In this document: positions 5,862 to 28,071 of the stretch, piece by piece
Layout: each line of letters opens with the position of its first letter
How positions within the stretch are numbered: position 1 is the first letter of the stretch
Assembly (NCBI GenBank): GCA_002254545.1
Contig: NJEA01000002.1
Location: forward strand, 1-38,185
Direction: 5' to 3'
Length of the DNA stretch: 38,185 nucleotides
Source: Candidatus Aenigmarchaeota archaeon ex4484_224
GTDB lineage: Archaea > Aenigmatarchaeota > Aenigmatarchaeia > CG10238-14 > EX4484-224
Translations under genes and position numbers: made by a program
Notes under the pieces: generated by a model
Seen by the model: only the letters and a program-made list of their open reading frames with translations
Databases searched by the model: none
Told to the model about the DNA's origin: nothing

Positions 5862-6619
5862 TTGTTTTGGTTGGTTTAGGTTTGTATGATGAAAGGGATG
5901 TATCCCTTAAAGGCTTGGAAGAAATAAAATCTTCAGATAAAGTTTATTGCGAACTTTATACTAGTTTTTGGAATGGAAGTCTTGAAAATCTTGAGAAATT
6001 AGCAAATAAAAAAATTATTTTGGTTAAAAGAAAAGATTTGGAAGATAGTTTAGAAAAAATAGTTGAAGAAGCTAAAGATAAAAAAATTTCAATTTTAGTT
6101 CCTGGAGACCCCTTAGTTGCAACAACTCATTCTTCGATAATTCAGGAAGCAAGAAAAAGAAAAATTAAAACAAAAATAATTCATTCATCTTCCATAGTTT
6201 CAGCTATAGCTGAAACTGGCTTACATATATACAAATTTGGGAAAGTTGTTAGCATTCCTTTTTTAGAAAAAGTTTCAGAGTTGCCAAAATCTGTTTATGA
6301 TTCAATTTTATCGAATAAGAAAAATAATTTGCATACTTTATGCCTTTTGGATATTGATTTTGAAAATAGGAGATATATGAGTGTTAAAGAAGCTTTGGAG
6401 ATTCTTTTAAAAATAAATGAAAAATATGGAGGAGAAATTTTGAATGAAGAGGAAAAAATATTAGTTGTTTGTAGGCTTGGAAGCGAAAATCCCAAAATTG
6501 TTTATGGTAAAATTAAAAATTTGATAAAAAAAGAATTTGGATATCCCTGTTCTTTAATTTTACTTTCACCTTTACATTTTTCAGAAAAAGAATTTATTGA
6601 GTTATTTGCTGAGGAGTAG
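5858..6619 (+). CDS. dph5: Diphthine synthase
   Basis: 253 aa. Tetrapyrrole-methylase fold with LVGLGLYDERDVSLKGLE...VYCELYTS and VPGDPLVATTH. ATGA overlap with the upstream gene. Confidence 0.9.
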   Translation: MIVLVGLGLYDERDVSLKGLEEIKSSDKVYCELYTSFWNGSLENLEKLANKKIILVKRKDLEDSLEKIVEEAKDKKISILVPGDPLVATTHSSIIQEARKRKIKTKIIHSSSIVSAIAETGLHIYKFGKVVSIPFLEKVSELPKSVYDSILSNKKNNLHTLCLLDIDFENRRYMSVKEALEILLKINEKYGGEILNEEEKILVVCRLGSENPKIVYGKIKNLIKKEFGYPCSLILLSPLHFSEKEFIELFAEE

Positions 6620-7151
6620 ATTTAGATGGCCAAAAAGCAATAGCCATAAGGACAATAATAATGATTATAACTGCTATTAATCCTTGAATATCTTCCCAAC
6701 TTGCTCCAGGAACAGGACCAAAAATAGTTGGAATTAATCCCGATGAAATCAAAATACCAAAACCTATTAGCAAGCCAATTCCTAAAATTCCACCCCAAAA
6801 AGTCTTTCCCATTTTAACTTCTAAATATTCTCCAACACCTTTTGATAAAAACATCCCTAAAATCATTAATCCAATTGAAATTGTTAAAATAGAAATTGTT
6901 CCATAAAAGAAAAACATTGAAAGTTGAGTTTCAATGTTTACTCCAGCTAATATAGGATATGCCCAAACCATAAAAGCTGCAACTAAAGCAACGGTTGCAT
7001 TTACAACCATATTTTTTTCAGGCTCGCCAAAAATTTTTGATTTTCTTAATAATCCATAAAAAATTGCTGCAGTTAACATAAATGGAAATAGAAATTGAAA
7101 TGCTCCAAAATTTTTCAAAGCAATAATTGCATTTTCCATTGGAGTAGCCAT
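6594..7151 (-). CDS. Polytopic membrane protein, unknown family (paralog of 7156-7674)
   Basis: 185 aa with about 5 hydrophobic segments. Shares an N-terminal pattern (AI..L...G....L.PF.L..AI.Y.LL+K) and a C-terminal GP.PG...IIIIIVLMAI tail with its neighbour. Confidence 0.7.
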   Translation of the reverse strand: MATPMENAIIALKNFGAFQFLFPFMLTAAIFYGLLRKSKIFGEPEKNMVVNATVALVAAFMVWAYPILAGVNIETQLSMFFFYGTISILTISIGLMILGMFLSKGVGEYLEVKMGKTFWGGILGIGLLIGFGILISSGLIPTIFGPVPGASWEDIQGLIAVIIIIIVLMAIAFWPSKSTPQQITQ

Positions 7152-7155
7152 TTTC

Positions 7156-7674
7156 TCACTTTTGTGTAGCTGAAATTGCCATTAAAATAATAATTACAAT
7201 TATACTAGCAACGATAATTGAAACTGTTGTTGGATCAGGTCCTAGTCCAGGTGCTCCTAAAGGCGCTGTCCAAAAAACACTAATTAAACTTGAAGATATA
7301 GCTATAGCTAAAACTAAAGCAACTAGTGCAAATAAAGTTCTTCTACTTTTCATCGTTTCTGCCAAAAGTTTCATCAAATCTGGATAAAAAATGCTTGCTA
7401 AAAGGGATCCAAAAAAGAAAATTAGACCAAAAACAAAAATCTGCATAAAAAATCCAGTTAAAGGGGTAACAATGCTTAAACCATACAAAACTTTATAGGC
7501 TAAAAGAGAAAAACCAACTGACAAGGAAATTATTCCATCGATAATTCTACTTTTTGTAATATCAAATTTTTTAAGCAAAACATAAATGAAAGCTGTTCCT
7601 AAAATGAAAACTAGCAAATCATAGAATCCATAGCTTAAAAGTTCTCTAATCGCATATTCAATATAATTTACCAT
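7156..7674 (-). CDS. Polytopic membrane protein, unknown family (paralog of 6594-7151)
   Basis: 172 aa with the same architecture and conserved termini as the adjacent gene. The gap between them is 4 nt. Confidence 0.7.
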   Translation of the reverse strand: MVNYIEYAIRELLSYGFYDLLVFILGTAFIYVLLKKFDITKSRIIDGIISLSVGFSLLAYKVLYGLSIVTPLTGFFMQIFVFGLIFFFGSLLASIFYPDLMKLLAETMKSRRTLFALVALVLAIAISSSLISVFWTAPLGAPGLGPDPTTVSIIVASIIVIIILMAISATQK

Positions 7675-7723
7675 TTTTCTCTAAAATTAATTTCAAAATT
7701 AAAGAATTTATTTTTTGTAAAAT

Positions 7724-8353
7724 CTAAACTTTTAACTTATTAACTAAATCTGTTAAAGCTTTAACAGATTCTATTAAAGCTGGCAAGGCCTCTTTAAAAA
7801 CTCTTTCTAAGCTCTCAACTTTTGCTATCAATCTTCTTATATCTTCTTTCAATTCACTTATTCTATTTTCCAAATTAATTTTTTCATTTTCTTTTTCGGC
7901 TTCGATTTCTTTTAAAAGATTTGATATTGCTTCAATTTTTGCTTCAATTTCTTTGTATCTTAAGTTCATTTCTGAAATTTTTTTATTTATTTCAGAAACT
8001 CTATCCTCGATTAAAGTTTCGATATATGTGTCGTCTGGAGAAGATTTAGAAATTTCTCTATAATAGCTTTCTGGAACCGGTTCTTCAGGAATTTCAAAGT
8101 CTTCTTGTGGTTTTTTCAAATCTTCTATTGTTGGAAGTTCCTCTCTTCTTTCTTCTTTTCCAGCAACAACATCTCTAATTGCTTGAGACATAGCACTATC
8201 TATTTCAGCTTGAGAAAATCCTTCTTTTTTAAGAATATTAACAATTTCATTATCTGGAATTCCCTTAGAAGAAAGTTCTTTAACTCTTTCTATAGGTATA
8301 TAACCTCTTCCAATAGGCTCTTCAACTTTCTTTTTTTTCTTAAAGAAGAGCAT
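7724..8353 (-). CDS. Coiled-coil protein with a small helical N-terminal domain; function unknown
   Basis: 209 aa. N-terminus GYIPIERVKELSSKGIPDNEIVNILKKEGFSQAEIDSAM, then an acidic linker, then a heptad-rich C-terminal half (EINKKISEMNLRYKEIEAKIEAISNLLKEIEAEKE...). Confidence 0.65.
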   Translation of the reverse strand: MLFFKKKKKVEEPIGRGYIPIERVKELSSKGIPDNEIVNILKKEGFSQAEIDSAMSQAIRDVVAGKEERREELPTIEDLKKPQEDFEIPEEPVPESYYREISKSSPDDTYIETLIEDRVSEINKKISEMNLRYKEIEAKIEAISNLLKEIEAEKENEKINLENRISELKEDIRRLIAKVESLERVFKEALPALIESVKALTDLVNKLKV

Positions 8354-8391
8354 TTTCTCTTATTAATTTTTCTCTTATAAAGAAATAAAAA

Positions 8392-8787
8392 TTATCCTTT
8401 AACTTTTTCTTCTAACAGATCTTCCAAAATTCTTTTAACTTCTTCTCTAGTAACAAATTTTGATTTCAATGGATTGAAAAGTTCAACATAATTATATAAA
8501 CTTTCAAATTCCTCTCTTCTAACAAAATTTTCTAAATCTTTTTCAATTCTTTCTATCCTCTCTTCTAAATCTTTTAAATCATTTTTAAGTCTTTGAATTC
8601 CGTCCAAAATTCTATCAAGTTTTAGCTTTACTTCATCAATTTTCTCCATAGCTTCTCTTTGCAAACTTATTTGACTTTCTTCAATTTTATCATTTCTTTC
8701 TTCCAAAATTCTAATTCTTCTTTCAATTTCATTTAACCTTCTTATAATTTCCTTTAAAATTTCACCAACTTTTACTTTTTCTGCCAT
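8392..8787 (-). CDS. Coiled-coil protein; function unknown
   Basis: 131 aa, almost entirely heptad-like charged repeats (RLNEIERRIRILEERNDKIEE...LKDLEERIERIEKDLE). Divergent from the pilus ATPase gene. Confidence 0.6.
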   Translation of the reverse strand: MAEKVKVGEILKEIIRRLNEIERRIRILEERNDKIEESQISLQREAMEKIDEVKLKLDRILDGIQRLKNDLKDLEERIERIEKDLENFVRREEFESLYNYVELFNPLKSKFVTREEVKRILEDLLEEKVKG

Positions 8788-8834
8788 AATAAAACATTTG
8801 TTTTGAAAAAGATAAATTAATAGTAGGTGTAATC

Positions 8835-11051
8835 TTGGTTAATTATGAAATTAAAGAAGGAGTTCTTAGAATAGATTGTAGGAATTGGGTAATTCCTACT
8901 AGTATTGAAGATTCTGGAGCTACAATGGCTACAATTATAGACATACTTACGAAAGAAGTAGGAATTGAAAGAATAATTCTGGAAGAAGAAAGAGAAATTG
9001 AGTATGATTACGAACAAACAAAAATGCTTTTGGAGTTAGCTAATCTTTACAAAAAAGTTTCATCAGAGCAATTTCTTTCTTTGTATAGAATTGTTCCAAA
9101 AGGAAAAGAGAAGCTTTTGGGAAAAAGGATATCCGAAATGGAATTTATAATTACTCAATTGATAAGGAAAGATCCAATAGCTGCTTATGTTAGAGTTAAT
9201 CAGTTGATCGAGCAATTTAAAAGAAGTAGTTTAAAAGAAGATATACATTTTTTAACAAAAATTTTGATTCCATTAAAAAATTTACTTGAAAATTTATCTT
9301 TAATAAAACATGCTAAACCCTATTTAAAGAATTATGTTTTTGGAGATAGATCAATCTATAGAAAAATTTTTTCTCCAATTATTAGACCAAAGTTTATGCT
9401 AACTAGATTTATTTTAAAATTGCCGAAAGATTCTAGGTTAATAGAAAGATATAGAATTGGATATGAAACGGAAGTTGAAATTTATAAACTTCCAAATTCG
9501 ACAAGACTTTTTTACAAAGTAATTCCTCCCGAGCTTAAGTTAAAAGAAGATGAAAATGAAATTTTGCAAAGAGCTAGAGAGTATTTAGCAGAGCATAGGC
9601 CTAGAGAAGAAGAAGTTTCTGATTTTGAAAGAGCTAGAGAGTTGTTTACTTCGCTAGGAAGAAGTTTAATAAGAAGTTTGGCTAAAGAAAAAAATTTAAA
9701 ACTTTCTTTGGAAGAAATTGAGCTTTTAACAAAAATTTTAGTTAGATATACAGTTGGATTTGGAATTTTGGAAGTTTTAATAAGTGATGAAAGATTACAA
9801 GATGTTTATGTAAATGCTCCTATAGGAACAACACCAATTTTTGTTAATCATTCTGATTATGGAGAATGCGAAACAAATGTTATTCCGACAAGAAGTGAAG
9901 CAGAAGCTTGGGCAACAAGGTTTAGACTTTATTCTGGAAGACCATTAGATGAAAGCAACCCAGTTTTAGATACAGAAATAACTTTGCCTGAAGGAAGAGC
10001 AAGAGTAGCTATTATTACTAAAAATTTGTCTTTGAAAGGATTAGCATTTGCTTTTAGAAGACATAGGCAAAATCCATGGACATATCCTCTTTTCATAAAA
10101 GTAAAATACTTTAATCCTTTGTATGCTGGTATAATGAGTTTTTTAGTAGATGGGGGAAGAGCGATTTTAATAGCTGGAAGCAGAGGTTCTGGAAAAACAT
10201 CTTTATTAAATGCAACTATGCTTGAACTAATGAGAAATACTAGAATTGTTGTTGTTGAAGATACTCCTGAGTTAGGGATTGATTTGATGAGAAAGTTAGG
10301 TTATAATATTGTTAGCATGAAATCTAGATCAGTAATTACTCAAGTTCAAACTGAATTGCCTCCTGAAGAAGCTTTAAGAACTGCTTTAAGACTTGGAGAT
10401 TCTGTTTTAATAGTTGGAGAAGTAAGAAGTAAAGAATCTTTAGCTTTATTTGAAGCTATGAGAATTGGTGCTTTATCTAATTTAGTAGCTGGTACAATTC
10501 ATGGAGAATCTGCTTATGGTGTTTATGATAGAGTTGTTAATGATTTAGGTGTAGTTCCAACAAGCTTTAAAGCTTTAGATATAATTACAATTGCAACTTT
10601 CATAAAAACACCAGATGGTTTAAGAAGGTTTAGAAGAGTTGTTGAGTTAACAGAAGTTAGAAAGGACTGGAAAGAAGATCCCTTGCAAGAAGAAGGATTT
10701 GTTAAGCTAATGGAATATTCGGCAAAGGAAGATAGCTTAAAACCTACAGATGTTTTGCTTGAAGGAGAAAGCCAAGTTTTGAATGAAATTGCTAAAAGAA
10801 TAAGAGAATTTAGAGGGAATTGGGATGCTGTTTGGGATAATATTTTGTTAAGAGCAAAAATTAAACAAACTTTAGTTGATTATTCTTTAAAATTAAATAG
10901 GCCAGAAATTTTAGAAGCAAAATTTACAGTTGAAGCTAATGAAGCTTTTCATTTAATTACAAACAAAGTTTATGAAGAAGTTGGTTTGGATAATAAAAGA
11001 ATTTATGAAGAATGGCTTAAATGGCTGAAAGAAAAACTTAGATTAAGGTGA
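8835..11051 (+). CDS. Type IV pilus/archaellum-type secretion ATPase (FlaI/VirB11/TadA superfamily) with a long N-terminal extension
   Basis: 738 aa. Walker A AGSRGSGKTSLLNA (nt about 10171-10210), Asp box VVVEDTPEL, Walker B VLIVGEVRSKES and His-box-like AGTIHGES. TTG start at 8835, preceded by AGGTG 5 nt upstream. The next in-frame ATG is at 8925. Confidence 0.88.
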   Translation: MVNYEIKEGVLRIDCRNWVIPTSIEDSGATMATIIDILTKEVGIERIILEEEREIEYDYEQTKMLLELANLYKKVSSEQFLSLYRIVPKGKEKLLGKRISEMEFIITQLIRKDPIAAYVRVNQLIEQFKRSSLKEDIHFLTKILIPLKNLLENLSLIKHAKPYLKNYVFGDRSIYRKIFSPIIRPKFMLTRFILKLPKDSRLIERYRIGYETEVEIYKLPNSTRLFYKVIPPELKLKEDENEILQRAREYLAEHRPREEEVSDFERARELFTSLGRSLIRSLAKEKNLKLSLEEIELLTKILVRYTVGFGILEVLISDERLQDVYVNAPIGTTPIFVNHSDYGECETNVIPTRSEAEAWATRFRLYSGRPLDESNPVLDTEITLPEGRARVAIITKNLSLKGLAFAFRRHRQNPWTYPLFIKVKYFNPLYAGIMSFLVDGGRAILIAGSRGSGKTSLLNATMLELMRNTRIVVVEDTPELGIDLMRKLGYNIVSMKSRSVITQVQTELPPEEALRTALRLGDSVLIVGEVRSKESLALFEAMRIGALSNLVAGTIHGESAYGVYDRVVNDLGVVPTSFKALDIITIATFIKTPDGLRRFRRVVELTEVRKDWKEDPLQEEGFVKLMEYSAKEDSLKPTDVLLEGESQVLNEIAKRIREFRGNWDAVWDNILLRAKIKQTLVDYSLKLNRPEILEAKFTVEANEAFHLITNKVYEEVGLDNKRIYEEWLKWLKEKLRLR

Positions 11052-11069
11052 AATTTAAAAATTAAATTA

Positions 11070-12998
11070 ATGAATATTTTGGAAGAAATAAAAGATTTTG
11101 AAGAAGAAAAACCTTCTATTTATGAAAGATTTTGCAAAATTTTTTCTTTTTTGAAATATCCAGTTCCGACTAATTGGAAAAAAGAATGGAAGAAAGAAAT
11201 AGAATTTACTCATCTTAAAGTTTTGCCTTCAGAAATTTTTTCATCAGCTATTAATTTTTCTATATTGATTTTCTTCTTTCTTCTTCTCTTTTACTATTTA
11301 ACAAACTATCTTGGAATTTTAGTAATGGGAAGCTTACTTATTCCTTTAATTTTCTATTTTCTAATTTCATATCCGAAGTTTTACTCTTACTGGTTTAGAG
11401 CTAAAGCTTCTTCAGAAATGGTAAATTCAATAATTTATTTAGCAATTTCTTTAAGAGCTTATAAAAATTTAGAAGCAGCTTATGTTTTTACTTCTAAAAA
11501 TCTTACTGGTCCGTTAGGAAAAGATTTTAGAAAGGGATTATGGGAAATTTATTCAGGAAAAGCTAGAAACATAGAAGAAGTAATAGATAAAATTTCTGAA
11601 AAATGGAGTGTGGAAAGTGAAGAGTTTTCTCAGGCACTTCTTTTGATAAAAAATAGCATAAGATCAGAAAACATGGAAAAAGTGCTAGATAAAGCTGTTA
11701 ACTTAATTTTCTCTTCCACTCTTTCTAGAATGGAAAGATATGTAATTGAAACCAAAACACCCTTAGTTTTAATAAATATGTTTGGTATAATGTTACCATT
11801 GCTTGGTTTAATAATTTTGCCAATATTATTCTTAATGATGCCAAATGTTTCAGACCCATTTTTGATAGGATTTTTCTATGATGTATTTTTGTTTGTAATA
11901 GTATATCTTTTGATTAAACAAAGAGTTTGTTTGACTGCATTTTCTTTTAATCAACCAGAGTTGTTTAAAATTGAAAAATTTAGAAAATTTAAGAAAAAAA
12001 TTAAAATTTTTTCTTTAGCTTTAGGAATAGCATTGGTTTCATTTTTTTCTTATCTTCTATTTTCTTCTGAGTTAGTTTTGTTTAGTGAATATCAACTATT
12101 TCTTTCTTTAGCTTTAATTTTTTCTATTTCTTTGTCTTTTGTAATTTATAATGGAGTTGTTGGATGGTTTTTTTTCGAAAAAAATAAAGAAATAGTGGCT
12201 GCAGAAAACGAATTGCCTACTGCGCTAAGAGAATTTAGCATAGAATTAAGTTTAGGAAAACCAATAGAAGATGTAATTTATTCTTCTTTAGGGAGATTGG
12301 GAAATTTTAAAATTAAAAGATTTTTTGAAAAAGTAATTTCCAACATAAAGCAAATTGGCTTAGGACTTTCCGATGCAATTTTCCACAAAAAATATGGAGC
12401 TATAAACGAGTTTAAATCAAAAGTAATTTCTACAACAATGCTTTTAGTGGTAGAAATTTCAAAAAAAGGACCATTTTATTTATCAAAAGCTCTTGACTTT
12501 ATTTCAAAGTATTTAGAAAATGCAAAAAGAACAAGTGAAAAATCTTTAAGCATATTGGAAGAAATAACTTCTAACATAAAAATGCAATCTACAGTCATTG
12601 CACCAATAACTTCTGGAATTATTGTTGGATTAACTGTATTTACTCTTGCTATTTTCTTTTATTTAGGAGGTACCATTCAACAAGCTTCAAAAATTTTTGA
12701 ACAAAAATCTTTTTCAAACTTTTTAGATTTTGGATATTTTTCAATTTTAAGTATAACTTCTCTTACTCCAGTTCCAATTTTTCAAATTATTGTTGGAATT
12801 TATCTTTTAGAAATTACATATTTGTTAACATACCTATATGGAGAAATTGTTTATGGTAATGATGAAGTTTCAAAAGCAAGACTTTTTGCTAAAAATATTT
12901 TGATAAGTACTTTAATTTACATCATTTTGGTTCTATTAATTTATTTTGGAATAAAAGTAATGATAAATATAGAAGAACTTGCGAAAGGATTGGGATAA
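11070..12998 (+). CDS. FlaJ/TadC/PilC-like polytopic platform membrane protein
   Basis: 642 aa. Two soluble helical blocks alternate with clusters of TM helices. It sits immediately downstream of the ATPase, as in archaeal pilus and archaellum operons. Confidence 0.75.
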   Translation: MNILEEIKDFEEEKPSIYERFCKIFSFLKYPVPTNWKKEWKKEIEFTHLKVLPSEIFSSAINFSILIFFFLLLFYYLTNYLGILVMGSLLIPLIFYFLISYPKFYSYWFRAKASSEMVNSIIYLAISLRAYKNLEAAYVFTSKNLTGPLGKDFRKGLWEIYSGKARNIEEVIDKISEKWSVESEEFSQALLLIKNSIRSENMEKVLDKAVNLIFSSTLSRMERYVIETKTPLVLINMFGIMLPLLGLIILPILFLMMPNVSDPFLIGFFYDVFLFVIVYLLIKQRVCLTAFSFNQPELFKIEKFRKFKKKIKIFSLALGIALVSFFSYLLFSSELVLFSEYQLFLSLALIFSISLSFVIYNGVVGWFFFEKNKEIVAAENELPTALREFSIELSLGKPIEDVIYSSLGRLGNFKIKRFFEKVISNIKQIGLGLSDAIFHKKYGAINEFKSKVISTTMLLVVEISKKGPFYLSKALDFISKYLENAKRTSEKSLSILEEITSNIKMQSTVIAPITSGIIVGLTVFTLAIFFYLGGTIQQASKIFEQKSFSNFLDFGYFSILSITSLTPVPIFQIIVGIYLLEITYLLTYLYGEIVYGNDEVSKARLFAKNILISTLIYIILVLLIYFGIKVMINIEELAKGLG

Positions 12999-13108
12999 TG
13001 GGAAAAACTTTACTTTTTGTAGGATTTTTAATTATCTTATTTTTACTTTTAGCTATTTTCTTTTATTTTGCATATTATAAAATCCCAATGGAAATTTTGG
13101 GGATTTAA
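12998..13108 (+). CDS. 36-aa single-TM micro-protein (candidate)
   Basis: My translation: MGKTLLFVGFLIILFLLLAIFFYFAYYKIPMEILGI. Its ATG overlaps the platform gene stop (TAATG), and its stop overlaps the next ATG (TAATG). This double coupling argues that it is translated. It is below the ORF-track size cutoff. Confidence 0.45.
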   Translation: MGKTLLFVGFLIILFLLLAIFFYFAYYKIPMEILGI

Positions 13109-13344
13109 TGAAAGGACAAGTTATTTCAGCAATATTAGTAGTAATTGGGATAATTTTAATTTTTATCTTGGTAATGTCATTTCTGAAGAATGTTAATTTT
13201 GGGGATTTTTGGAGGAATGTTAAGTATGGATTTTGTTGTTATGTTTTACATTGCCAACCAGCTTTTACAAATGTTTGGAAAAATATTAATCCTTTGTGTT
13301 GGTCAATGTGTTGGGGCTGTGCATGTGGAGAAGAATGTAAATGA
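13108..13344 (+). CDS. Small pilin-like protein with a class III-type signal and a Cys/Trp-rich C-terminus
   Basis: 78 aa. MKG|QVISAILVVIGIILIFILV resembles an archaeal prepilin signal. The tail GFCCYVLHCQPAFTNVWKNINPLCWSMCWGCACGEECK contains 9 Cys. Confidence 0.7.
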   Translation: MKGQVISAILVVIGIILIFILVMSFLKNVNFGDFWRNVKYGFCCYVLHCQPAFTNVWKNINPLCWSMCWGCACGEECK

Positions 13345-13372
13345 TAAATCTACTTTTTTTAAAATTTAATTT

Positions 13373-14719
13373 ATGGAAGTTCCCGGACTTATTCTTAAAG
13401 TGGTTGTAATGATTATTATTCTTGCACTAGTTTTTAGCGTGTCCTCAAAAGTTAAAAATTTAATAAATGAAGTTTTTGGATCTATCTTTGGTTCTCCTTC
13501 TTATTCGAAAGCAGAAAAAGCAATTTTATGTGCTTATTATAGATGTGAAGAAGGCTGTGATTCTCCAATAACAGATCAATATTGTGATGAATGGTACGAG
13601 AATGTTTGTAAAATTCCTATTAAATTAGGATTTGCCGAGGGAAGTGAAAAGAAGATATGTAATGATAATTCTGCTCAATGGCCTGTAGAAATTCCTCTAG
13701 AAGAAAGCTATTCTATAGATAAAAATAAACTATCTTCTGAAATCGAAAATTTAGAATGTATAAAAGATGAATTTTCATCAAATTCAATTTATGTTAACAA
13801 AAAATTAATTCAAAGTGTTGAAGGAAAAAGTGATTGTTATGATAAAGTTACTTTAATAAAGGATTCTTCAAAGAGAGCATATGTAGATTATTTAGAAGTA
13901 TTTGAAAGTCCACAATATATTAGTTTACTTCCACATAGCACTTTAAGTAATGTTCAACTTTCTTCACAAAAGAAAGCACGAATCTACTTTTCTGACGAAA
14001 ATGATGTAAATGGAAAAACAGTATTTTATGCTAAAGAGAATAATTATTGCATTTTCAGCTTTTTTTACCTTAACGAAACGCAGAATAAAATTATAGGAGG
14101 ATATTTTATACTAAAAGAAAATGAAAATTTTTTAATTCCTCTTTGGAAAAGATCTGGATATATTTCTCATCTAGAAGTAAAAGATGAGAAATGTGGAGAT
14201 TATTCATCTGTTCTCTCTTTTTCCTGGAAAGATGAATATACATCAAAAATTGGAATGGATATGGTTACAGAAAAAGAGGATTATAGAAAGTGTTGGAGTG
14301 TTGAGAATGGAAAAATTGAATTAGTGGATAGTGAATCAGTTTTGGGTAAAAAAAGTATTAAAGTTAGTTTTGCTGGAGGCAATATTTTAACTTCTGAAGA
14401 AAAATTTTCTCTTGATCTAGCTTGTGTTTCTCAGAACCTTAATCTTAAGTATATTTTCTTATTTGTTAAGATACCAACGTCAGTAGAAGAAGGAGCAAAT
14501 ATTATAGTAGATATTTATGACAAGAATAAAAACATTTGTGGATATTCTCAAAGTTTCTTACTTAGTAAAGTTCCTAATGAATGGATCATGATAGAAGTTG
14601 GAAATCAACAAAAATGTGCCTCAATTTCTTCTATTAATTTTACCATTTCTACCCCTCATGCTATTTCTTTGCCAGACATTATTTATGTAGATGGAATAAC
14701 ATTTTTGGAAAAATCTTAA
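13373..14719 (+). CDS. N-terminally anchored extracellular protein with a Cys-rich stalk and a C-terminal beta-sandwich-like domain (candidate adhesin)
   Basis: 448 aa. Hydrophobic N-terminus LILKVVVMIIILALVF, then CAYYRCEEGCDSPITDQYCDEWYENVC. The C-terminus ends ...WIMIEVGNQQKCASISSINFTIS...IIYVDGITFLEKS, typical of jelly-roll binding modules. Confidence 0.7.
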   Translation: MEVPGLILKVVVMIIILALVFSVSSKVKNLINEVFGSIFGSPSYSKAEKAILCAYYRCEEGCDSPITDQYCDEWYENVCKIPIKLGFAEGSEKKICNDNSAQWPVEIPLEESYSIDKNKLSSEIENLECIKDEFSSNSIYVNKKLIQSVEGKSDCYDKVTLIKDSSKRAYVDYLEVFESPQYISLLPHSTLSNVQLSSQKKARIYFSDENDVNGKTVFYAKENNYCIFSFFYLNETQNKIIGGYFILKENENFLIPLWKRSGYISHLEVKDEKCGDYSSVLSFSWKDEYTSKIGMDMVTEKEDYRKCWSVENGKIELVDSESVLGKKSIKVSFAGGNILTSEEKFSLDLACVSQNLNLKYIFLFVKIPTSVEEGANIIVDIYDKNKNICGYSQSFLLSKVPNEWIMIEVGNQQKCASISSINFTISTPHAISLPDIIYVDGITFLEKS

Positions 14720-14735
14720 TCAAAAGTGAAAAAAT

Positions 14736-15008
14736 ATGATAAAAGGTGTTGGTTGGTACATTTTGTTTGTAATTTTTTTAATAGGATTATTTTTACTTGC
14801 TTTATCTATAGTTTTTCCTCAAATTTTTCCTCATTTTTCAAATTATAGCTTAAGATATGCTTGTGTGAGAAAACTTCAAAGCTTTTGTTATAAATGGATA
14901 ACAACTGGAATAAAAGAAGATTGGAATTCTATTCCACCTTTTGATTGTAGTAAAGTTGGAATTTCTGAGCCAAAAAGAGAAGAATGTGAAAATTTAATCT
15001 CAAAATAA
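14736..15008 (+). CDS. Small pilin-like protein
   Basis: 90 aa. MIKG|VGWYILFVIFLIGLFLLALSIVF, followed by a 4-Cys soluble tail. Confidence 0.65.
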   Translation: MIKGVGWYILFVIFLIGLFLLALSIVFPQIFPHFSNYSLRYACVRKLQSFCYKWITTGIKEDWNSIPPFDCSKVGISEPKREECENLISK

Positions 15009-15022
15009 CAAATATTTAATTA

Positions 15023-15430
15023 ATGCCAGCTGTAAGCGTAGAAATTTTAGGTATTTTACTCCTCGCAGCAATTTTGATAGCTGGTAGTGCTTTGTATTTT
15101 ACAAAATTTAATGAAATTTTGATAGGAAAATTGACAAATACATCTTCTGAAATTACTGCAAGAAAAATTTCTACAACAATAGGAATTTTAGGCTCTTCTA
15201 TTTCTCCAATTTCTTATAAGCTAGATCTTTACTCAGATTATATGATTGAAATTAGAGAAGGTAAAGAATTGTTTGTTGAAAAAAAAGCTAAAGATCATAA
15301 AGGATATAAAGCTTTAGAAACTCTTCCATTTAGTTGTAGTAATAGAAGGATAGAAGCTAATAAGCTAAAAATTGAAATTGAAAGAAGTAGCTTAGGAAAT
15401 GTAATTTGTAGAATAAGTGCTCTTGAATGA
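15023..15430 (+). CDS. Pilin-like protein
   Basis: 135 aa. MPA|VSVEILGILLLAAILIAGSALYF has a short leader, an acidic residue near +4 and a hydrophobic helix. Confidence 0.65.
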   Translation: MPAVSVEILGILLLAAILIAGSALYFTKFNEILIGKLTNTSSEITARKISTTIGILGSSISPISYKLDLYSDYMIEIREGKELFVEKKAKDHKGYKALETLPFSCSNRRIEANKLKIEIERSSLGNVICRISALE

Positions 15431-15434
15431 GAAA

Positions 15435-16223
15435 ATGAAAGGAATAAGTTTAACTTTCATAGGTATAATAGTAGCTTTGATGTTTATTACTATCCTTATC
15501 GGAACTTACTTTCTTGTTCAAAAATATTTTTTTGAAGTCCATGTAATTGTTAGAGAAAATGAATTAGAAAGAAAATCAATAATTCTAGCAGAGAATTTAC
15601 TTTCTAGTCCAAGATTTGTAGAATATCCTGTTAAAAATTCAAAAGTTTTGCTAGGGTATCCTTATAACAAAGGTGTTGTAAATGCTACTCTTTTAGATAG
15701 ATGGGTTGAAATGGGATATGCTTCTAGAGTTACAAGTAAAGCTGATTTAGAAAATTTAAATTGGCAACAATTATTCCAAAATGCAAGAACGTGGGAGATA
15801 GGATATCCCAATACTTTTAGTATAGTATATGTTGTAGATCTTGATAATTGTGATAAGAATTCAAAATTTTGTAAAGGGTGGATATTTGCTTTGAAAGGGC
15901 CCACTTCATTTCCATCAGAAAAAATTAAGAAATTTTTAACTTGTTTAGCAACAAATTGGAATGTTGAAAATCCTATTGAAGTAATTTCAGCAATTTTTGG
16001 TTTGTCTCACTTTCTTTCAAATCCATTAGTTTCATCTCTTTTTATAGAGAATGTTTGGACGCCTTTTAGAGTTGCTGAATGTATAAACAATGCCTTTGGA
16101 AGCAATACTTACTTTTCCCAATCTTCAACACAACTTTCGTCTTTAGGTTTACCAGTATTAATAAGCTATGGAAATGATTTACATATAGGAAGATTAGTTG
16201 TTGGAATAGTTGAATGGGGCTAA
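15435..16223 (+). CDS. Pilin-like protein with a class III-type signal
   Basis: Start moved to ATG 15435, 4 nt after the upstream stop, giving MKG|ISLTFIGIIVALMFITILIG. The ORF-track start at 15417 is GTG and overlaps the previous gene. Confidence 0.7.
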   Translation: MKGISLTFIGIIVALMFITILIGTYFLVQKYFFEVHVIVRENELERKSIILAENLLSSPRFVEYPVKNSKVLLGYPYNKGVVNATLLDRWVEMGYASRVTSKADLENLNWQQLFQNARTWEIGYPNTFSIVYVVDLDNCDKNSKFCKGWIFALKGPTSFPSEKIKKFLTCLATNWNVENPIEVISAIFGLSHFLSNPLVSSLFIENVWTPFRVAECINNAFGSNTYFSQSSTQLSSLGLPVLISYGNDLHIGRLVVGIVEWG

Positions 16224-16224
16224 T

Positions 16225-16710
16225 ATGAAGAAAGGGATTGTTCAGTTTATAACAGTTAGCGGAATGATAATAGTATTTGGAATAATTTTATTGCTATTTG
16301 TTTCTTGGTTTTTTCTTTCTAATTTGAAATATAATTTATGGGTGGAAACAAATATAAACTATCAATTTAATTTAGTTAGTGATGCTTTTTTAGAATTTTT
16401 TGAAATTATTCCGAACTATAGAATGATTGCTGAATATTTTGTTATAGGTTTGCATGATTTGAAATCGTTTGAAAAGTATTGGGGTAGAGATTGTTTAAGC
16501 TTTCAAGGAAAAGTAGTAGGAGAATTGCATAAGTTAACAGCCTCTTCTTGCTTTAAAGTAAGTATTCCATCTTGCAATCCTAAAGAGGGATTAATGGGAG
16601 AATACAATTGTAAAGAATCATTGCCATATATACAAAAAGAAACTTTTACAATTGTTCTTCCTTATAATCCAGAAAGTTTGATTAAAAAAGTTGGAATAGA
16701 GGTGCAATGA
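16225..16710 (+). CDS. Pilin-like protein with a class III-type signal
   Basis: Start moved to ATG 16225, 1 nt after the upstream stop, giving MKKG|IVQFITVSGMIIVFGIILLL. The ORF-track start at 16210 is TTG. Confidence 0.7.
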   Translation: MKKGIVQFITVSGMIIVFGIILLLFVSWFFLSNLKYNLWVETNINYQFNLVSDAFLEFFEIIPNYRMIAEYFVIGLHDLKSFEKYWGRDCLSFQGKVVGELHKLTASSCFKVSIPSCNPKEGLMGEYNCKESLPYIQKETFTIVLPYNPESLIKKVGIEVQ

Positions 16711-18110
16711 TGAAATCACAAGCAAGCATTGTTATTTTAATTGTAATGGCTGCAATTTCCTTTGCATCTATATATGGAATAATTTCAGGAAGTTTAATTC
16801 AAAAGATTGAAAATGAAATTTCTTTGGTTCATGCAAGCAGAATTATTTCTTCAATTAATAATTTTGAAATGATTAAAATTGGAGCAAAAGTAGCTTGTAA
16901 TTATTCTGCATTTCAAGGAATCTATCATGTAGGAATTAATGGTGGATATGAGGAAGTGCCATCCAATCTTAATTTTAATAGTTATTCTATTTGGAGGAAT
17001 TATTCTAAAACTTTCTTCCCAACTCTTTATCATTACAATATAACGAATAAAACACAAAAAATTATGAAAGAATATGCAGATCAAATTAAATCAGAAAAAG
17101 AAGTAAAAAATCTTGTACTTAAACTTAAAGGAATGGAAGAAGAAAATGATAGATTTAATTTTTCATTGGAAGTAAATAACTTATTATTTTGTAAAGAAGG
17201 ATGTCTTAATGAATTAGGATTTGCCTTTAATTCAACTATTTTAACAAAGTTTAAAGAAATGATGGAGCATGCAAATGAAACTTTTTTAAACAAAGATTTT
17301 TTGAATGAAAGCTTAAAAAATGCATATAAAAATTTACCTAAAAATTGTACTTTAATTGAGATTGGAAATATTTGTGAAAATAAAATTAAGCCACTTGAAT
17401 ATTATATTGAAAATTGTTCAGAATACGAGTTTGGAATTAATTGTGAGAATAAAGAAATTGAAGAATGCATTAATGAAACTTTGCTTTTGGTAAATCAATC
17501 TTTTATAGAATTTATTAAAGGAGTAAAGATTGAAGAAAATGACTTTTCTGCAAGAATGAAACCTCTTAAATCTATAATAAATTTTGAGTATGAGGTTAAA
17601 TATTCCTCAAGGGAGGATTCAAAAGAATGTGGTTGTAAGCGATGGAAAATTGTTTTGAAACCAAAATGGTCAAAACCCCCATCAAATGTAATTGGTTGTG
17701 TAGATACTGATAACGGTAAAGATTATTTTACAATCGGATATTGTGAAAATGAAACAGATAGCTTTGTTGATGTAAGAATTGATGAAGAAAATTATAAAGA
17801 ATATTATTGTGAAAATAATCTTTGCAAGTATGAGAAAGTTAATTGTAATGATGTTTGTTTAAGTTTGGGATATGATAAGGGATTTGTTAGTAATATGGGA
17901 GGGGGTTGTGTTTGTGAAATTTGCGAAGATTGGTATGATGTGCTAAAAAATACTAAGTATGTTTATAAATATCCAGGAGCAATGGCAGCTTTAGTAGAGT
18001 ATCAAGATATCTATAAGTATCCAGTTTATAACTATAGATGGAGGCAAACAAATTATTTTAATACAACAATAGATTTTGTTTCAATAACTGGAAGTAAAAA
18101 AGTTATTTGA
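16707..18110 (+). CDS. Large pilin-like/N-anchored extracellular protein with a Cys-rich C-terminal region
   Basis: 467 aa. MMKSQASIVILIVMAAISFASIYG, with an ATGA overlap to the upstream gene. The C-terminal roughly 170 aa carry many Cys (ECGCKRW...GCVDTDNG...YCENNLCKYEKVNCNDVC...GGGCVCEICEDW). Confidence 0.7.
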   Translation: MMKSQASIVILIVMAAISFASIYGIISGSLIQKIENEISLVHASRIISSINNFEMIKIGAKVACNYSAFQGIYHVGINGGYEEVPSNLNFNSYSIWRNYSKTFFPTLYHYNITNKTQKIMKEYADQIKSEKEVKNLVLKLKGMEEENDRFNFSLEVNNLLFCKEGCLNELGFAFNSTILTKFKEMMEHANETFLNKDFLNESLKNAYKNLPKNCTLIEIGNICENKIKPLEYYIENCSEYEFGINCENKEIEECINETLLLVNQSFIEFIKGVKIEENDFSARMKPLKSIINFEYEVKYSSREDSKECGCKRWKIVLKPKWSKPPSNVIGCVDTDNGKDYFTIGYCENETDSFVDVRIDEENYKEYYCENNLCKYEKVNCNDVCLSLGYDKGFVSNMGGGCVCEICEDWYDVLKNTKYVYKYPGAMAALVEYQDIYKYPVYNYRWRQTNYFNTTIDFVSITGSKKVI

Positions 18111-18375
18111 GAGAAGAGCAACAAGAAGAACAATCACCACCTTCTTTGCAAGTTTGGCAAGCAGATTTTAAATCTTCTGGAAGATGATCCCAACATTCTT
18201 CAAGTTTTTCCCGCAAACCAGGATATCCATTTTCTGAACAAATTTTCATTATTTCGGCTCTACATATTCCTTCTTTAGAAAATCCATAGAGAGGGTTTAA
18301 TCCATATCTAAATGCAACAAAAAGAAGAACAAGAACTACAGAAATTGCAAGAATTAAATAAATAATTTTTTCCAT
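18103..18375 (-). CDS. Small N-anchored Cys-rich protein
   Basis: 90 aa. TM IIYLILAISVVLVLLFVAF, then 9 Cys, ending CQTCKEGGDCSSCCSSLK. Its 3' end overlaps the convergent gene by 8 nt. Confidence 0.6.
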   Translation of the reverse strand: MEKIIYLILAISVVLVLLFVAFRYGLNPLYGFSKEGICRAEIMKICSENGYPGLREKLEECWDHLPEDLKSACQTCKEGGDCSSCCSSLK

Positions 18376-18408
18376 GAAATTAAATTATTTTTACTTGTTA
18401 AAATAATT

Positions 18409-18792
18409 TTATGAATATCCATTTGGATAATCCCTTATTAAAGTACAAAAGTTTTCATCAAACTTTTCTTTTCCAGTTTCTTCCTCAATTTCGATAAATC
18501 CAGACCAAAAGTTTTTAGTACAAGAAATTAATTTTTGTGTTTCTATGGGATTTCCTACTGATACTTGGTCTAATGTTTGATTATTTATTCTAGTAGGATC
18601 TTCGTTACATTTCTGAAGTATAAAATTCCAACATTCTCCTACTGACATTGTTGTCGAAAAAGTTCCGTACTTTGTAAATAATACAACAATTACAAGTGCT
18701 GCTGCTATTAGTACAATTATTAATGGAACCAAAACTGAAATACCTTTCATAATTTTTTCTATTATTTTTCTATTATTTAAACTATTGTGCAT
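18409..18792 (-). CDS. Pilin-like protein with a class III-type signal
   Basis: 127 aa containing MKG|ISVLVPLIIVLIAAALVIVVLF. The start is either ATG 18792 (17-aa leader, 11-nt overlap with the upstream gene) or ATG 18750 (MKG). Confidence 0.65.
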   Translation of the reverse strand: MHNSLNNRKIIEKIMKGISVLVPLIIVLIAAALVIVVLFTKYGTFSTTMSVGECWNFILQKCNEDPTRINNQTLDQVSVGNPIETQKLISCTKNFWSGFIEIEEETGKEKFDENFCTLIRDYPNGYS

Positions 18793-20986
18793 AAGGGATT
18801 ATTGGAGATGAAAAACTTTCTTCTATCGTATAATTCAAAGAAATTTTTACAGAAGATTCTCTTAATTCATTCAAAATATCTTTGTAAGATAAAAGTTCAC
18901 AAATATAACTATCTTTTATAAAATCTTCAAAGGTTTTTTCTCCAACTTCGCTTTTTACATAATTTTGCCAATTTTTTCTAATTTTCTCTATTTCATCTTT
19001 TTGCCAAGAAGGAATTAGTTTTGAACATTCTTCCCATTCTTGCAAAGTATTGTTTTTATAGCAAGCTTCACAATACCTAGCAAGTACATAGAATGGTAAA
19101 TCTTTGAAAGAAATAGTTCTTGCTTCTATTTCTTCGGGTGTTAGCTCTTCGAACTTTTTATTTCCTAAGTAAGTTAGATTTATTTCTATAGAGGAAACAT
19201 TAAATTCACAAATTTTTTGTGGATTAATTATTTTTTCTTTTTCAAAACTTTTCCAAATTTCGTCATTAGGATCTTCTTTACAATCAATTTTTTCTAATCC
19301 CAAAGCTTCTCTTACCAAAATTTTTTTGGAAGGTATATATACAGAAGAAATGGTTTTAATCGGCTCAATTTTAATATCGTGTATTTCTAAGTTTTTACCT
19401 CTATATTTTCCACTAATAATCATTTCTACACTTCTTCTAAATTTTAAATCTTCTAAATTGAAAGGATTTGGGGAAAATGAAAAGTTTAAAGTTAATGGTC
19501 CTTCTTTAAACTTTTGAACAATTTTTGTAGGCTTTGTTAAAGTTTCTGAATAAGTTAAATTTGTAATAGCTACAAAATTTCCAGTATGGTTAAAGATTGT
19601 TTTTATTCTTAATGGAATTCTTGATAAAATTGTCTTATTCCAATCTAAACACTTACAAACAGCAAATTTAATTTTTACACATTTTTTATTATTTTCACAA
19701 GGTAAATTATCTGCGCATTCTACTTCCTTTAAACCTGTATAAGGAAGATTTCTTTCGATTGTCTCTTGAGAATAAGGACATTTCTTCCATTTATAAATTC
19801 CTATTTTATGTCTATCAAATTCTAACAAGAGTTTAATAGAAGATTTTGGAGGTAGTGTTTCTGTATTGTGAAACTCCTTAGACGGAAGAACTATGTTTCC
19901 ATTTTCCTTATTTCCAAATATTATTTCTGGATTTTCAGAATAAATATAGTAAATGAGTGGTGAAAAAATAGTTATGTTTTTGTTATAAAGATTTGTAATA
20001 GTTAAAATTGTATAATAGTTACTTTCTAATGCTAATAATCTATTTTGAACATCATATTCTACTTTAATTCCAACTTTTTTTGGAATTTCTTCAACTTTTG
20101 TTTTAGTTATTGTAACTTGTGGAGCTAGTGGAGGGGCTCCACAAAAAAAGGCATAATACTCTGGATATTTTTGATATAAAGTTTGAAAGAAAGAAGAAGA
20201 GCAAAGAGTAACAGAAGCTCCTTTAACATAAATTGGTATACCAACAAAAATAGAAAGCAAAAGTAAAAGATAGAAGGAAAATGTTGGAAGAAATATATTT
20301 GAAATTTTTGGAGATCTAATTTGAAATAAATTAATTAAAGTTACTATAAAAACTACTATCCAGATAGATAGTTCGACAATTCTTGCTATTCTGTAATTTT
20401 GGCTAATTTCTAAAAGCTTATATACAGAAAAGTCGCTTGGTAGATTTAACCAAGTAACCGAATATTCAGAAACAAAAATTATTATGGAGAGTAATAAAAA
20501 GAGAATTGAGAGATAGAGAAAAATTTTGCTTATGCTAAATCCCACTAAGCTTGAAATGGTATCTAAAACCTTAAGCTTTGGACCCCCAATAATTTGAATT
20601 AGAGCTAAAAGAACAATTGAAATAACAAATCCAACTATAGAAAGAAGGAAGAAAGGAAAAAGAGATGAAGGATTGTGATAGGCAATTGAAATAATCCAAC
20701 CAACTGCTAAGTTAAAAATAACTACTATTAAAGCGATGAAGAGAAAAGCAAAAATAGGAAGTCCTTTAAATCCAATATTTTTGAATTGTGAAGGGACTGA
20801 TGAAAAAGCATTTGAGATTTTATCTCTCATAATACTTTTAAATTTTGATTGTTTTGTTCTTTCTTCCAACCATTTGGAAAACGGAAGCTTTGTTCTCCCA
20901 CTGGTATATTCTTTCATCCATTCAATGTAGAGTGGATTTAATTTATTTTTCTTTGTCATTTTATCTAAAATTATTTTTACTTCCAA
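18782..20986 (-). CDS. Large polytopic membrane protein with a roughly 450-aa extracytoplasmic C-terminal domain; unknown family
   Basis: 734 aa. A basic cytoplasmic N-terminus, about 6-7 TM segments between roughly residues 75 and 255, then a Cys-containing soluble region (KKCPYSQ...ECADNLPCENNKKCVKIKFAVCKC). Confidence 0.7.
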   Translation of the reverse strand: MEVKIILDKMTKKNKLNPLYIEWMKEYTSGRTKLPFSKWLEERTKQSKFKSIMRDKISNAFSSVPSQFKNIGFKGLPIFAFLFIALIVVIFNLAVGWIISIAYHNPSSLFPFFLLSIVGFVISIVLLALIQIIGGPKLKVLDTISSLVGFSISKIFLYLSILFLLLSIIIFVSEYSVTWLNLPSDFSVYKLLEISQNYRIARIVELSIWIVVFIVTLINLFQIRSPKISNIFLPTFSFYLLLLLSIFVGIPIYVKGASVTLCSSSFFQTLYQKYPEYYAFFCGAPPLAPQVTITKTKVEEIPKKVGIKVEYDVQNRLLALESNYYTILTITNLYNKNITIFSPLIYYIYSENPEIIFGNKENGNIVLPSKEFHNTETLPPKSSIKLLLEFDRHKIGIYKWKKCPYSQETIERNLPYTGLKEVECADNLPCENNKKCVKIKFAVCKCLDWNKTILSRIPLRIKTIFNHTGNFVAITNLTYSETLTKPTKIVQKFKEGPLTLNFSFSPNPFNLEDLKFRRSVEMIISGKYRGKNLEIHDIKIEPIKTISSVYIPSKKILVREALGLEKIDCKEDPNDEIWKSFEKEKIINPQKICEFNVSSIEINLTYLGNKKFEELTPEEIEARTISFKDLPFYVLARYCEACYKNNTLQEWEECSKLIPSWQKDEIEKIRKNWQNYVKSEVGEKTFEDFIKDSYICELLSYKDILNELRESSVKISLNYTIEESFSSPIIPYAQ

Positions 20987-21153
20987 AAATTAATAGAAAA
21001 ATCTATACAGCTATTGAAATAAGGAGGAATATTGTAGATAGAAATCTTTATATAGCTTGCTATAAGTGCTATTTTTCCAAAAAATTTAAATATTACCATC
21101 TAAATAACATTTACAAGCAATAAGCTTAAAAAAGCCAAGAAAAAGGTGGAAAA

Positions 21154-23020: not shown

Positions 23021-23280
23021 TTAACAACACACCTCCCATTTTCATAAACACAACTTTTATTTGGTTTTGGTGTTTTTACATTTGGACATAATACAAATTT
23101 TGAACAATTTTCCTTAAAATTTCTTATATCTACACAAGCCCAAATTGCTCCATATTCATAACAACAATTTATAGATCTCCATTCACATGGATTAAAAAAG
23201 AATTTTTGGTATATCCAATAAGCTAAACTCACAATCAATATTAAGATAAAAATGATTAGAAAAACTTTTTTGTAATTCAT
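23017..23280 (-). CDS. Small N-anchored Cys-rich protein embedded in the AMP-salvage operon
   Basis: 87 aa. TM VFLIIFILILIVSLAYWIY, then 8 Cys (NPCEWRSINCCYEYGAIWACV...CSKFVLCP...SCVYENGRCVVK). It has 4-nt overlaps with both rbcL (upstream) and deoA (downstream). Confidence 0.65.
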   Translation of the reverse strand: MNYKKVFLIIFILILIVSLAYWIYQKFFFNPCEWRSINCCYEYGAIWACVDIRNFKENCSKFVLCPNVKTPKPNKSCVYENGRCVVK

Positions 23281-27280: not shown

Positions 27281-27833
27281 TTAACTTGATTGACAAAGTA
27301 TTTTTAATCTTCTTTTCTTTTTAGGATGTTTAAAACCAATAAATTTTTCAAAAATTTTGAGATATTTACTTCCAATTCTTAACCTAGAAATTTTTCCATA
27401 TGTTTTAAGAGTAGAATCGATACCAAAATCTTTTAGTAACTTCTTAACTTGTAAGAGTCCAAATCTATTTACTGAATTTATTTCTATATCTCTTCCATTT
27501 ATTGATACTGTTGTTTCATCATCAAAAAATGCTCTTATCCATTCCTTCTTAACTTCAATGCTAGAGATAAATATCTCTTTTGGGATGAACCAAGTATATG
27601 AATTGAAAGGAAGTGAAATTTTAAGAGATTGAAGAATATGTTTAACACCATTGACTTTAAGTTCTTTTCCATCATGGATTTTTGTTGCTTTTCTTCCAAA
27701 TGCAATTTTCATGTCATTTTCAAATTCTTTCAATTTTTCTTCTTTTATGTTTTTTTAAATCTCCTGGAGATCTTTTTTCTTTAGAAATCCATACAGAACC
27801 ATCTCCACATAAATGTGCATGAATCCTAGCCAT
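27281..27833 (-). pseudogene. Two-motif LAGLIDADG homing-endonuclease-like gene, split by one frameshift at a homopolymer
   Basis: Motif 1 is MARIHAHLCGDGSVWIS (frame of ORF 27720-27956, ATG at 27833). Motif 2 is WIRAFFDDETTVSINGRDI (ORF 27281-27733). The frames switch at a T7/A7 run at 27750-27756. A 1-nt correction there gives a roughly 183-aa protein of normal length for this family. Confidence 0.7.
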
Positions 27834-27847
27834 TTCTTTTGTAAAAA

Positions 27848-27935: not shown

Positions 27936-28071
27936 ACTTTTTAGATTAGTCAACATAATATTATTTATTCCATTTTAAATAGGTTTTAAGTTTTTCGGTA
28001 GCATTTTTCACAATTAGGCTTTGAATATAATGACTAACCTTTTAATTCTCTTTTTTCCAAATTCAAAATTA

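Follow-up and report, generated by a model that had tools for sequence, protein, structure and literature searches.

A probable type IV filament locus encoding cysteine-rich, pilin-like proteins in an Aenigmatarchaeota genome, with counterparts in other DPANN archaea

The systems closest to the locus described here have been reported from DPANN archaea. According to the sections of Hamm et al. used here (2024, Nat Commun 15:6449, PMC11291902), two conserved loci of the cluster-2 DPANN, found in Nanohalo-, Woese-, Pace-, Nano- and Aenigmarchaeota, combine homologues of the type IV pilus proteins CpaF and TadC with coiled-coil proteins (CCPs) that resemble reovirus sigma-1 (PDB 6GAO), and in Ca. 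Nanohaloarchaeum antarcticus proteomics showed the production of several of the locus proteins, CCPs included. Makarova, Wolf and Koonin (2019, Biochem Soc Trans 47:389, Fig. 2A, PMC6393860) described “dark matter” islands of DPANN genomes, where the genes after those for an ATPase and TadC encode signal-peptide proteins without detectable similarity to known pilins; the authors took these unrecognisable proteins to be diverse, fast-evolving pilins. A nanoarchaeal ATPase clade with pilins that could not be identified had already been noted by Makarova et al. (2016), who also reported an intracellular coiled-coil partner, arCOG07564, for the euryarchaeal/haloarchaeal type IV pilus system of clade 4F. 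Here we analyse a locus of this kind in Candidatus Aenigmarchaeota archaeon ex4484_224, on a stretch of 38,185 nucleotides (nt) of contig NJEA01000002.1 that we call the window. The locus is likely to be an Aenigmatarchaeota-type version of a type IV filament (pilus-like) system conserved across the cluster-2 DPANN, a reading that rests on its ATPase and platform proteins, on the enrichment of class III-like leaders among its products, on a structural model of one of them (g07), on the conservation of gene order and on the literature just cited.

The core of the locus lies between positions 8835 and 20986, where an original prediction, made from the letters of the window, had placed a plus-strand operon of ten genes and three convergent minus-strand genes. 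This layout is borne out by the listing of open reading frames (ORFs) and by inspection of their junctions. Ten tightly coupled genes occupy 8835-18110 of the plus strand, and three genes run on the minus strand from 20986 down to 18103, the last plus-strand gene being overlapped by its convergent neighbour by 8 nt. The coupling is as close as had been claimed: a TAATG overlap lies on each side of a mini-ORF, there is one ATGA overlap, and the remaining gaps measure 1-28 nt. The mini-ORF itself (12998-13108, 36 residues) is the tenth plus-strand gene and is also predicted by an independent gene caller. Where the prediction needs correcting is in the extent of the locus, since the genes between 8835 and 20986 are all there and the boundary is misplaced: four conserved upstream genes (6594-8787) had been missed, and the conserved unit reaches upstream to 6594. 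The organism is a tiny, probably symbiotic DPANN archaeon, in agreement with the reduced archaeal host that had been proposed, and the nearest loci come from Aenigmatarchaeota metagenome-assembled genomes. The window has a G+C content of about 28% and carries archaeal housekeeping genes together with an AMP phosphorylase, form III RuBisCO and ribose-1,5-bisphosphate isomerase set; the interval 6501-21100 is 100% identical to one metagenome scaffold in ENA. For comparison we fetched 80 related loci from Aenigmatarchaeota, Woesearchaeota, Nanoarchaeia and Nanohaloarchaea. Families were defined by local iterative profiles from which the N-terminal helix had been removed, and upstream genes were counted in the 55 loci with enough flank.

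The plus-strand run opens with the motor. Gene g01 (8835..11051, plus strand), which has a TTG start after AGGTG, encodes a protein of 738 residues that by its sequence is a hexameric-type secretion ATPase of the PilB/FlaI/TadA/VirB11 family, to which CpaF also belongs in type, with N- and C-terminal extensions. It matches Pfam T2SSE at 2e-17, above the cutoff, and in the PDB it matches afGspE of Archaeoglobus (2OAP, 3.3e-28), CpaF (1.8e-21) and FlaI (4e-21), its Walker A motif (GSRGSGKTS) being aligned with those of its PDB relatives. These matches bear out the FlaI/VirB11-type ATPase of the original prediction, and relatives with 47-62% identity are found in the 80 loci. The next gene, g02 (11070..12998, plus strand), encodes a polytopic protein of 642 residues with about nine transmembrane (TM) helices. 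It has no match of its own to a hidden Markov model (HMM) in Pfam or NCBIfam, and a PDB sequence-profile search with its family gave nothing meaningful. Among its orthologues (23-36% identity, same position) 11 of 30 match Pfam T2SSF, the best at 1e-7, and from these matches and the nine or so TM helices we take g02 to be a platform protein of the TadC/FlaJ/PilC type. The identity first proposed for it, FlaJ/TadC-like, is thus reached by way of the orthologues and not by a direct HMM match. The platform gene directly follows the ATPase gene in 63 of the 80 loci.

A FlaI-like motor raises the question of a degenerate or reduced archaellum. FlaI is indeed the best NCBIfam name for g01 (6.5e-42, followed by TadA at 3.1e-35, each below its own cutoff), and for most Aenigmarchaeota metagenome-assembled genomes Li et al. 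(2021) list FlaG, FlaI and FlaJ with adjacent archaellum homologues. The FlaI equivalog score of g01 is 144 bits against a cutoff of 550, though, its N- and C-terminal regions are long and extra, and afGspE and CpaF match it as well as or better than FlaI does. On about 60 kb, that is, the window and roughly 20 kb of additional flank, there is no Pfam match to KaiC/FlaH, to archaellins or to FlaF/G (ArlF/G). The archaellum reading was rejected on these grounds, as the original prediction had also done, and we give it hardly any credence.

Downstream of the motor, the argument turns on the leaders of the proteins. Six leaders of class III (prepilin) type had been quoted for the locus and all six are present, although the description of them as basic fails for MPA^, which has no basic residue (the caret marks the border between leader and helix). 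We used a FlaFind-like rule of our own, which in its strict form starts from an ATG, allows no more than 14 further residues before K/R-G/A and then requires a hydrophobic stretch without charges, and in its looser form, applied to called ORFs, also allows Ser before the helix. Under the strict rule the six frames of the 38-kb window contain six matches, five of them within the locus and one at 28910. Under the looser rule 6 of 10 called ORFs of the locus match, as against 1 of 42 elsewhere, and in 63 related loci 87 of 428 ORFs match on the downstream side of the platform and 12 of 596 upstream of the ATPase. From the mini-ORF to g11 the TM map shows a single N-terminal hydrophobic helix in every product, and at the level of a motif rule the subunits carry class III signals. 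They are also rich in cysteine, as had been claimed: the residue makes up 3.1% of the locus proteins and 0.72% of those in the rest of the window.

The one strict match in the window that lies outside the locus is the leader MKG^QKLDEFAFILLAG (MKG^QKLDEF) of a stand-alone protein of 366 residues encoded at 28910-30010 on the plus strand. It has one Cys and no family match, and may be a substrate of this machinery encoded apart from it.

The most conserved of the pilin-like set is g07 (15435..16223, plus strand; 262 residues from its ATG), whose leader is MKG^I (ISLTF). Local profiles find its family in 15 loci, and an exhaustive HMMER search found 49 cluster representatives among 1.84 billion proteins. 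Leader length in this family ranges from 2 to about 20 residues, and in nearly all members K/R-G stands directly before the helix; a pair that stays fixed beside the helix while the leader varies in length is what one would expect at a processing site. The AlphaFold model of g07, built from a 41-sequence alignment, has a mean predicted local distance difference test score (pLDDT) of 84.9 and a predicted template modelling score of 0.78, and consists of a helix over residues 2-57 followed by an alpha/beta head. The predicted 56-residue N-terminal helix and globular head match the “lollipop” layout of pilins. Structure prediction, which had been suggested as a check, was less rewarding for g04, where the model from a 2-sequence alignment reached a pLDDT of 35 and was discarded as unusable. 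A PDB sequence-profile search with the g07 family gave nothing meaningful, and word-indexed homologue searches with g07, with the g07 alignment and with the g04 alignment each returned only the query and one relative, these proteins being barely represented in the database used.

Several observations weigh against a filament. No filament has been observed, and no major pilin can be named. The proteins g03-g12 have no match in Pfam or NCBIfam, pilin models included, as expected from the claim that recognisable families were absent downstream, and HMM searches likewise place none of them in the characterised pilin and adhesin families Aap, Ups, Epd or Bas. Among 130 positional counterparts from the related loci no archaeal pilin model of Pfam is matched; adhesion-type domains, such as TSP_3, a galactose-binding domain, Big_9 and cadherin-like domains, occur there in scattered single proteins. 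Foldseek, run with the g07 model against the PDB and BFVD, returned nothing below E = 0.1, so that the head has no solved pilin relative there. Several proteins (g02b, g04, g06 and g10) have no canonical K/R-G leader in the window genome. There is, finally, the matter of the prepilin peptidase, which the original prediction had found to be missing from the window. We found no Pfam match to Peptidase_A24 in the window or in the extra flank, about 60 kb in total, and the motif GxGD[VIL][K/R] yielded no membrane-peptidase candidate in the 80 related loci; prepilin processing is consequently putative.

The missing peptidase and pilin models, together with the degenerate leaders MPA, MEVPG and MEK, would suit a plainer explanation, in which the products are Sec-dependent signal-anchor or secreted proteins of the ordinary kind, encoded by chance beside an ATPase and a TadC homologue, and in which K/R-G is incidental in an AT-rich, Lys-rich proteome. 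An incidental motif should not, however, be nearly missing from the six frames of the same AT-rich window outside the locus and from the genes upstream of the ATPase in 63 loci, nor be retained beside the helix by the g07 family whatever the length of its leader. Moreover, translation of the genes is coupled to that of the platform gene, and at 56 residues the helix of the AlphaFold g07 model is far longer than a membrane anchor. We therefore regard this explanation as very unlikely and return to the type IV filament.

Among the small proteins encoded after the platform, gene g03 (13108..13344, plus strand) encodes a pilin-like protein of 78 residues with the leader MKG^QVISAIL and eight Cys in a 40-residue tail, for which the 80 loci hold no sequence relative after helix removal. 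The pilin-like product of g05 (14736..15008, plus strand; 90 residues) has the leader MIKG^V (VGWY) and a head of about 50 residues with four Cys; its family is found at the same position in 7-9 loci, and of these Cys columns three do not vary in the alignment. Gene g06 (15023..15430, plus strand) encodes 135 residues with an N-terminal hydrophobic helix behind the leader MPA^V (VSVEIL), and is pilin-like by position only. The product of g08 (16225..16710, plus strand) is pilin-like, with 161 residues and the leader MKKG^I (IVQF), as is that of g11 (18409..18792, minus strand), with 127 residues and the leader ...KIMKG^ISVLV. The remaining small protein, g10 (18103..18375, minus strand; 90 residues, eight Cys), has an N-terminal helix preceded by MEK^I, with no G, A or S before the helix, and is weakly similar (3e-3) to an MKG-led protein of 104 residues from one related locus, L001. 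At the depth of the local iterative profiles g03, g06, g08, g10 and g11 are orphans.

Three further products are large. Gene g04 (13373..14719, plus strand) encodes a modular, Cys-rich protein of 448 residues, in which a conserved N-terminal module (a helix, the invariant cysteines C53, C58, C62, C79 and C96, and a QYPV motif) is followed by a C-terminal region that varies in the family, known from 12 loci, from roughly 100 to 700 residues; its orthologues have the leaders MKG or MRG, and the copy in the window has MEVPG^L. The product of g09 (16707..18110, plus strand) is a Cys-rich protein of 467 residues with 19 Cys, 14 N-x-S/T sequons and the leader MMKS^Q. It aligns over its full length with an orthologue from L009 that starts MKG^T, and its family is found in 4 loci. 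Gene g12 (18782..20986, minus strand), the first gene of the minus-strand operon, encodes a membrane protein of 734 residues from a TTG or 725 from the ATG at 20959, where an independent gene call places the start. About five TM helices within residues 69-262 precede a Cys-containing ectodomain of about 470 residues, which is the conserved part of the protein (5 loci) and is 26% identical to that of the L001 orthologue in the same convergent position. The N-terminal TM region of g12 was also considered as the missing prepilin peptidase and rejected, as it has no GxGD motif.

With most of the coding capacity in the large or modular g04, g09 and g12 and not in one abundant small pilin, and with a major pilin that cannot be identified, one may ask whether the motor and class III processing serve to expose Cys-rich proteins in a short structure, that is, in a bindosome- or pseudopilus-like apparatus for display or secretion. 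Class III signals do occur on non-filament proteins, such as those of the Sulfolobus bindosome, and are widespread on substrate-binding proteins (Sivabalasarma & Albers 2026). The locus, on the other hand, contains no substrate-binding-protein domain and no ABC transporter, the BasE model reaches 61 bits where its cutoff is 1000, and the small, helix-dominated proteins (36, 78 and 90 residues), which are positionally conserved, suit the core of a filament. An apparatus of this kind is unlikely in our judgement, and a type IV filament remains the reading we prefer.

Conservation across the related loci points in the same direction. Gene order and the families of g04, g05, g07, g09 and g12 are conserved in the Aenigmatarchaeota loci, which answers the proposal that the gene order be compared in related genomes. 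When the closest locus is compared, the ATPase is 62% identical and the platform 37%, and the pilin-like genes show 26-34% or no detectable identity; they are fast-evolving surface components.

The mini-ORF deserves separate mention. Gene g02b (12998..13108, plus strand) encodes a single-helix mini-protein of 36 residues, with the TAATG overlaps described above at both of its ends and with a degenerate leader, MGK^T. In 24 of 53 loci a single-TM ORF of 35-67 residues starts at the stop codon of the platform gene or within a few nt of it, for example at L001:14163, L008:9704 and L080:14462. These mini-ORFs mostly have a K/R-G leader, they are present in both Aenigmatarchaeota and Woese/Nanoarchaeia, and their size is below the usual length for gene calling. 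Their products are comparable in size to Flp-type mini-pilins, and could be helix-only mini-pilins or helices associated with the platform.

Upstream of the ATPase gene, the four genes that extend the conserved unit are all on the minus strand. The first of them, u1 (8392..8787), is divergent from the ATPase gene across a 47-nt spacer and encodes a cytoplasmic coiled-coil protein of 131 residues, a paralogue of that of u2 (7724..8353), which is a cytoplasmic CCP of 209 residues in which a variable linker joins a small helical domain at the N terminus to a C-terminal coiled coil. Iterative profiles seeded with either protein arrive at one set of 116 proteins, mostly two per locus. As in the loci of Hamm et al., then, CCPs stand directly upstream, and in 50 of 55 loci, which come from Aenigm-, Woese-, Nano- and Nanohaloarchaeota, the ATPase is preceded within 5 kb by homologues of u1 and u2. 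The coiled-coil profile matches reovirus sigma-1 (6GAO) at 4.9e-6, as well as other trimeric coiled coils. Next to these genes are u3 (7156..7674; 172 residues) and u4 (6594..7151; 185 residues), which encode paralogous membrane proteins (30% identity), with about four TM helices in u4. Their family shares the N-terminal motif ...LG(F)F-x-F-LLPFLLT-x-AIFYGLLRKSKIFG and has members in the 5 kb before the ATPase in 44 of 55 loci, in one to five tandem copies and in either orientation; further tandem arrays are found at L080:7236-8920, L074:6507-8349 and L022:6982-8746. No Pfam, NCBIfam or PDB match is common to its members, and DUF350 is weakly matched by 2 of 31.

How such a system might work can be proposed as follows. 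The downstream products would be putative prepilins, cut after G or A by an unlinked A24 prepilin peptidase, and the motor would extract the processed subunits from the membrane into a surface filament. The bulk subunit could be one of the small conserved proteins (the mini-protein, g03 or g05), and g07 may be a conserved minor pilin. The large modular, Cys-rich g04 and g09 and the membrane-anchored ectodomain of g12 might act as disulfide-stabilised adhesin or specificity modules. Such a filament would most likely attach to a host cell or a surface, and uptake of DNA or other material may be a possible extra role. We infer this role in cell-cell attachment or uptake from the logic of the family and from the DPANN lifestyle.

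The wider neighbourhood of the locus holds several features of its own. At 21476-25342 the pilus locus is adjoined by the cluster for AMP phosphorylase, form III RuBisCO and ribose-1,5-bisphosphate isomerase, a nucleoside salvage set typical of DPANN. The adjacency was considered as support for DNA uptake and rejected, as it recurs in only 2 of the 80 related loci. A minus-strand gene (23017-23280) that sits between those for form III RuBisCO and AMP phosphorylase, with overlaps of 4 nt, encodes a protein of 87 residues with an N-terminal helix and eight Cys, similar in style to the small Cys-rich g03 and g10 and without relatives in the 80 loci. A LAGLIDADG-type homing endonuclease ORF of 150 residues (27281-27956, minus strand) has a weak Pfam match in the contig annotation; the translation of the short ORF that precedes it (…VVGSNPTGP…) resembles read-through of a tRNA-like sequence, and ARAGORN found no tRNA there. 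At 4531-4621 a perfect in-frame tandem duplication, two copies of 45 bp (15 residues), lies within a TYW2/Trm5-type methyltransferase gene. Two independent assemblies of this region (L082 and L083) contain the unit only once, and the duplication reflects either strain variation or an artefact of assembly. About 2 kb before the end of the window, at ~36132-36186, ENA scaffold_726 ends and scaffold_12478 of the same sample (both in ERZ23491052) continues, with an overlap of about 55 nt; as the window spans both, it must come from a longer or different assembly that joins them. A scan for sigma-70 promoters and terminators performed no better than on shuffled sequence, and its model is inapplicable to archaea.

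DPANN archaea rely on physical contact with host cells. One may speculate that the entire conserved module works as a DPANN machine devoted to host contact and not as a simple adhesive pilus. Such a machine might build or gate a cell-cell bridge for the uptake of host material, and would consist of the motor, the platform, the helix-only mini-subunit, the two CCPs, the tandem four-helix proteins and the hypervariable, disulfide-rich class III proteins. This more ambitious proposal we hold to be doubtful; if it were true, the Cys-rich modular proteins would be rapidly evolving determinants of host specificity. The locus type is the most widely conserved candidate for a surface machine in DPANN, and the window offers a clean and complete example of it, with defined gene boundaries and several definable pilin-like families (those of g07, of g05 with its four Cys and of the Cys module of g04), to which the mini-ORF and the four-helix family add two further linked components. 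These families and components could guide the building of HMMs, metaproteomic searches and cryo-electron tomography.

Among known systems, the locus is like the archaeal Aap, Ups, Epd and Bas systems in its FlaI-like ATPase, its FlaJ/TadC-like platform and its subunits with class III signal peptides, and unlike them in that no HMM or structural match connects a downstream protein with any of them. No equivalents of the accessory proteins AapX and UpsX were detected. As regards Epd, the window proteins and the 130 counterparts have no DUF361/Class_IIIsignal match in Pfam; Gln at +1 after K-G is found only in g03 (MKG^Q) and in the protein at 28910, g09 (MMKS^Q) having Ser before its Gln. As regards the bindosome, BasE scores 60.6 bits against the cutoff of 1000, and substrate-binding-protein domains are missing. 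The likeness to bacterial Tad/Flp systems lies in the ATPase (the CpaF match at 1.8e-21), in a T2SSF-type platform and in candidate subunits of 35-55 residues, helix only, beside the platform. The window differs from them in having no TadZ, RcpA secretin, TadD/E/F/G or G^xxxxEY Flp motif, in having a single long platform protein where Tad has the pair TadB and TadC, and in its archaeal envelope. With clade 4F it may be compared through the CCPs, since 9 of 30 u2 orthologues weakly match the haloarchaeal DUF7310, below the Pfam threshold.

The composition of the locus had been thought undescribed, and this is not so: a locus with ATPase, TadC and CCPs is already in Hamm et al. (2024), and the reading of divergent proteins as pilins is in Makarova et al. 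(2019). The locus type and the “unrecognisable pilins” reading both belong to the literature, of which nothing is overturned here. The islands of Makarova et al. (2019) were described generically, without defined families, structures or conserved upstream partners. The likeness to the loci of Hamm et al. (2024) extends over u1, u2, g01 and g02, a CpaF/FlaI-type ATPase and TadC beside one or two CCPs, with a coiled-coil profile that matches 6GAO. In the sections of that article used here (PMC11291902), filament proteins (FlaF, PilA) are named for “Locus 1” only, and relative to what those sections describe the window is set apart by its ten-gene run of unrecognised, Cys-rich, class III-like proteins, its platform-coupled mini-ORF and its linked four-helix family. 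Relative to the literature compared, the head of g07, which as modelled has no relative among solved structures, is a new detail, as are the recurrence of the mini-ORF in related loci and the linkage of the u3/u4 membrane family to the ATPase.

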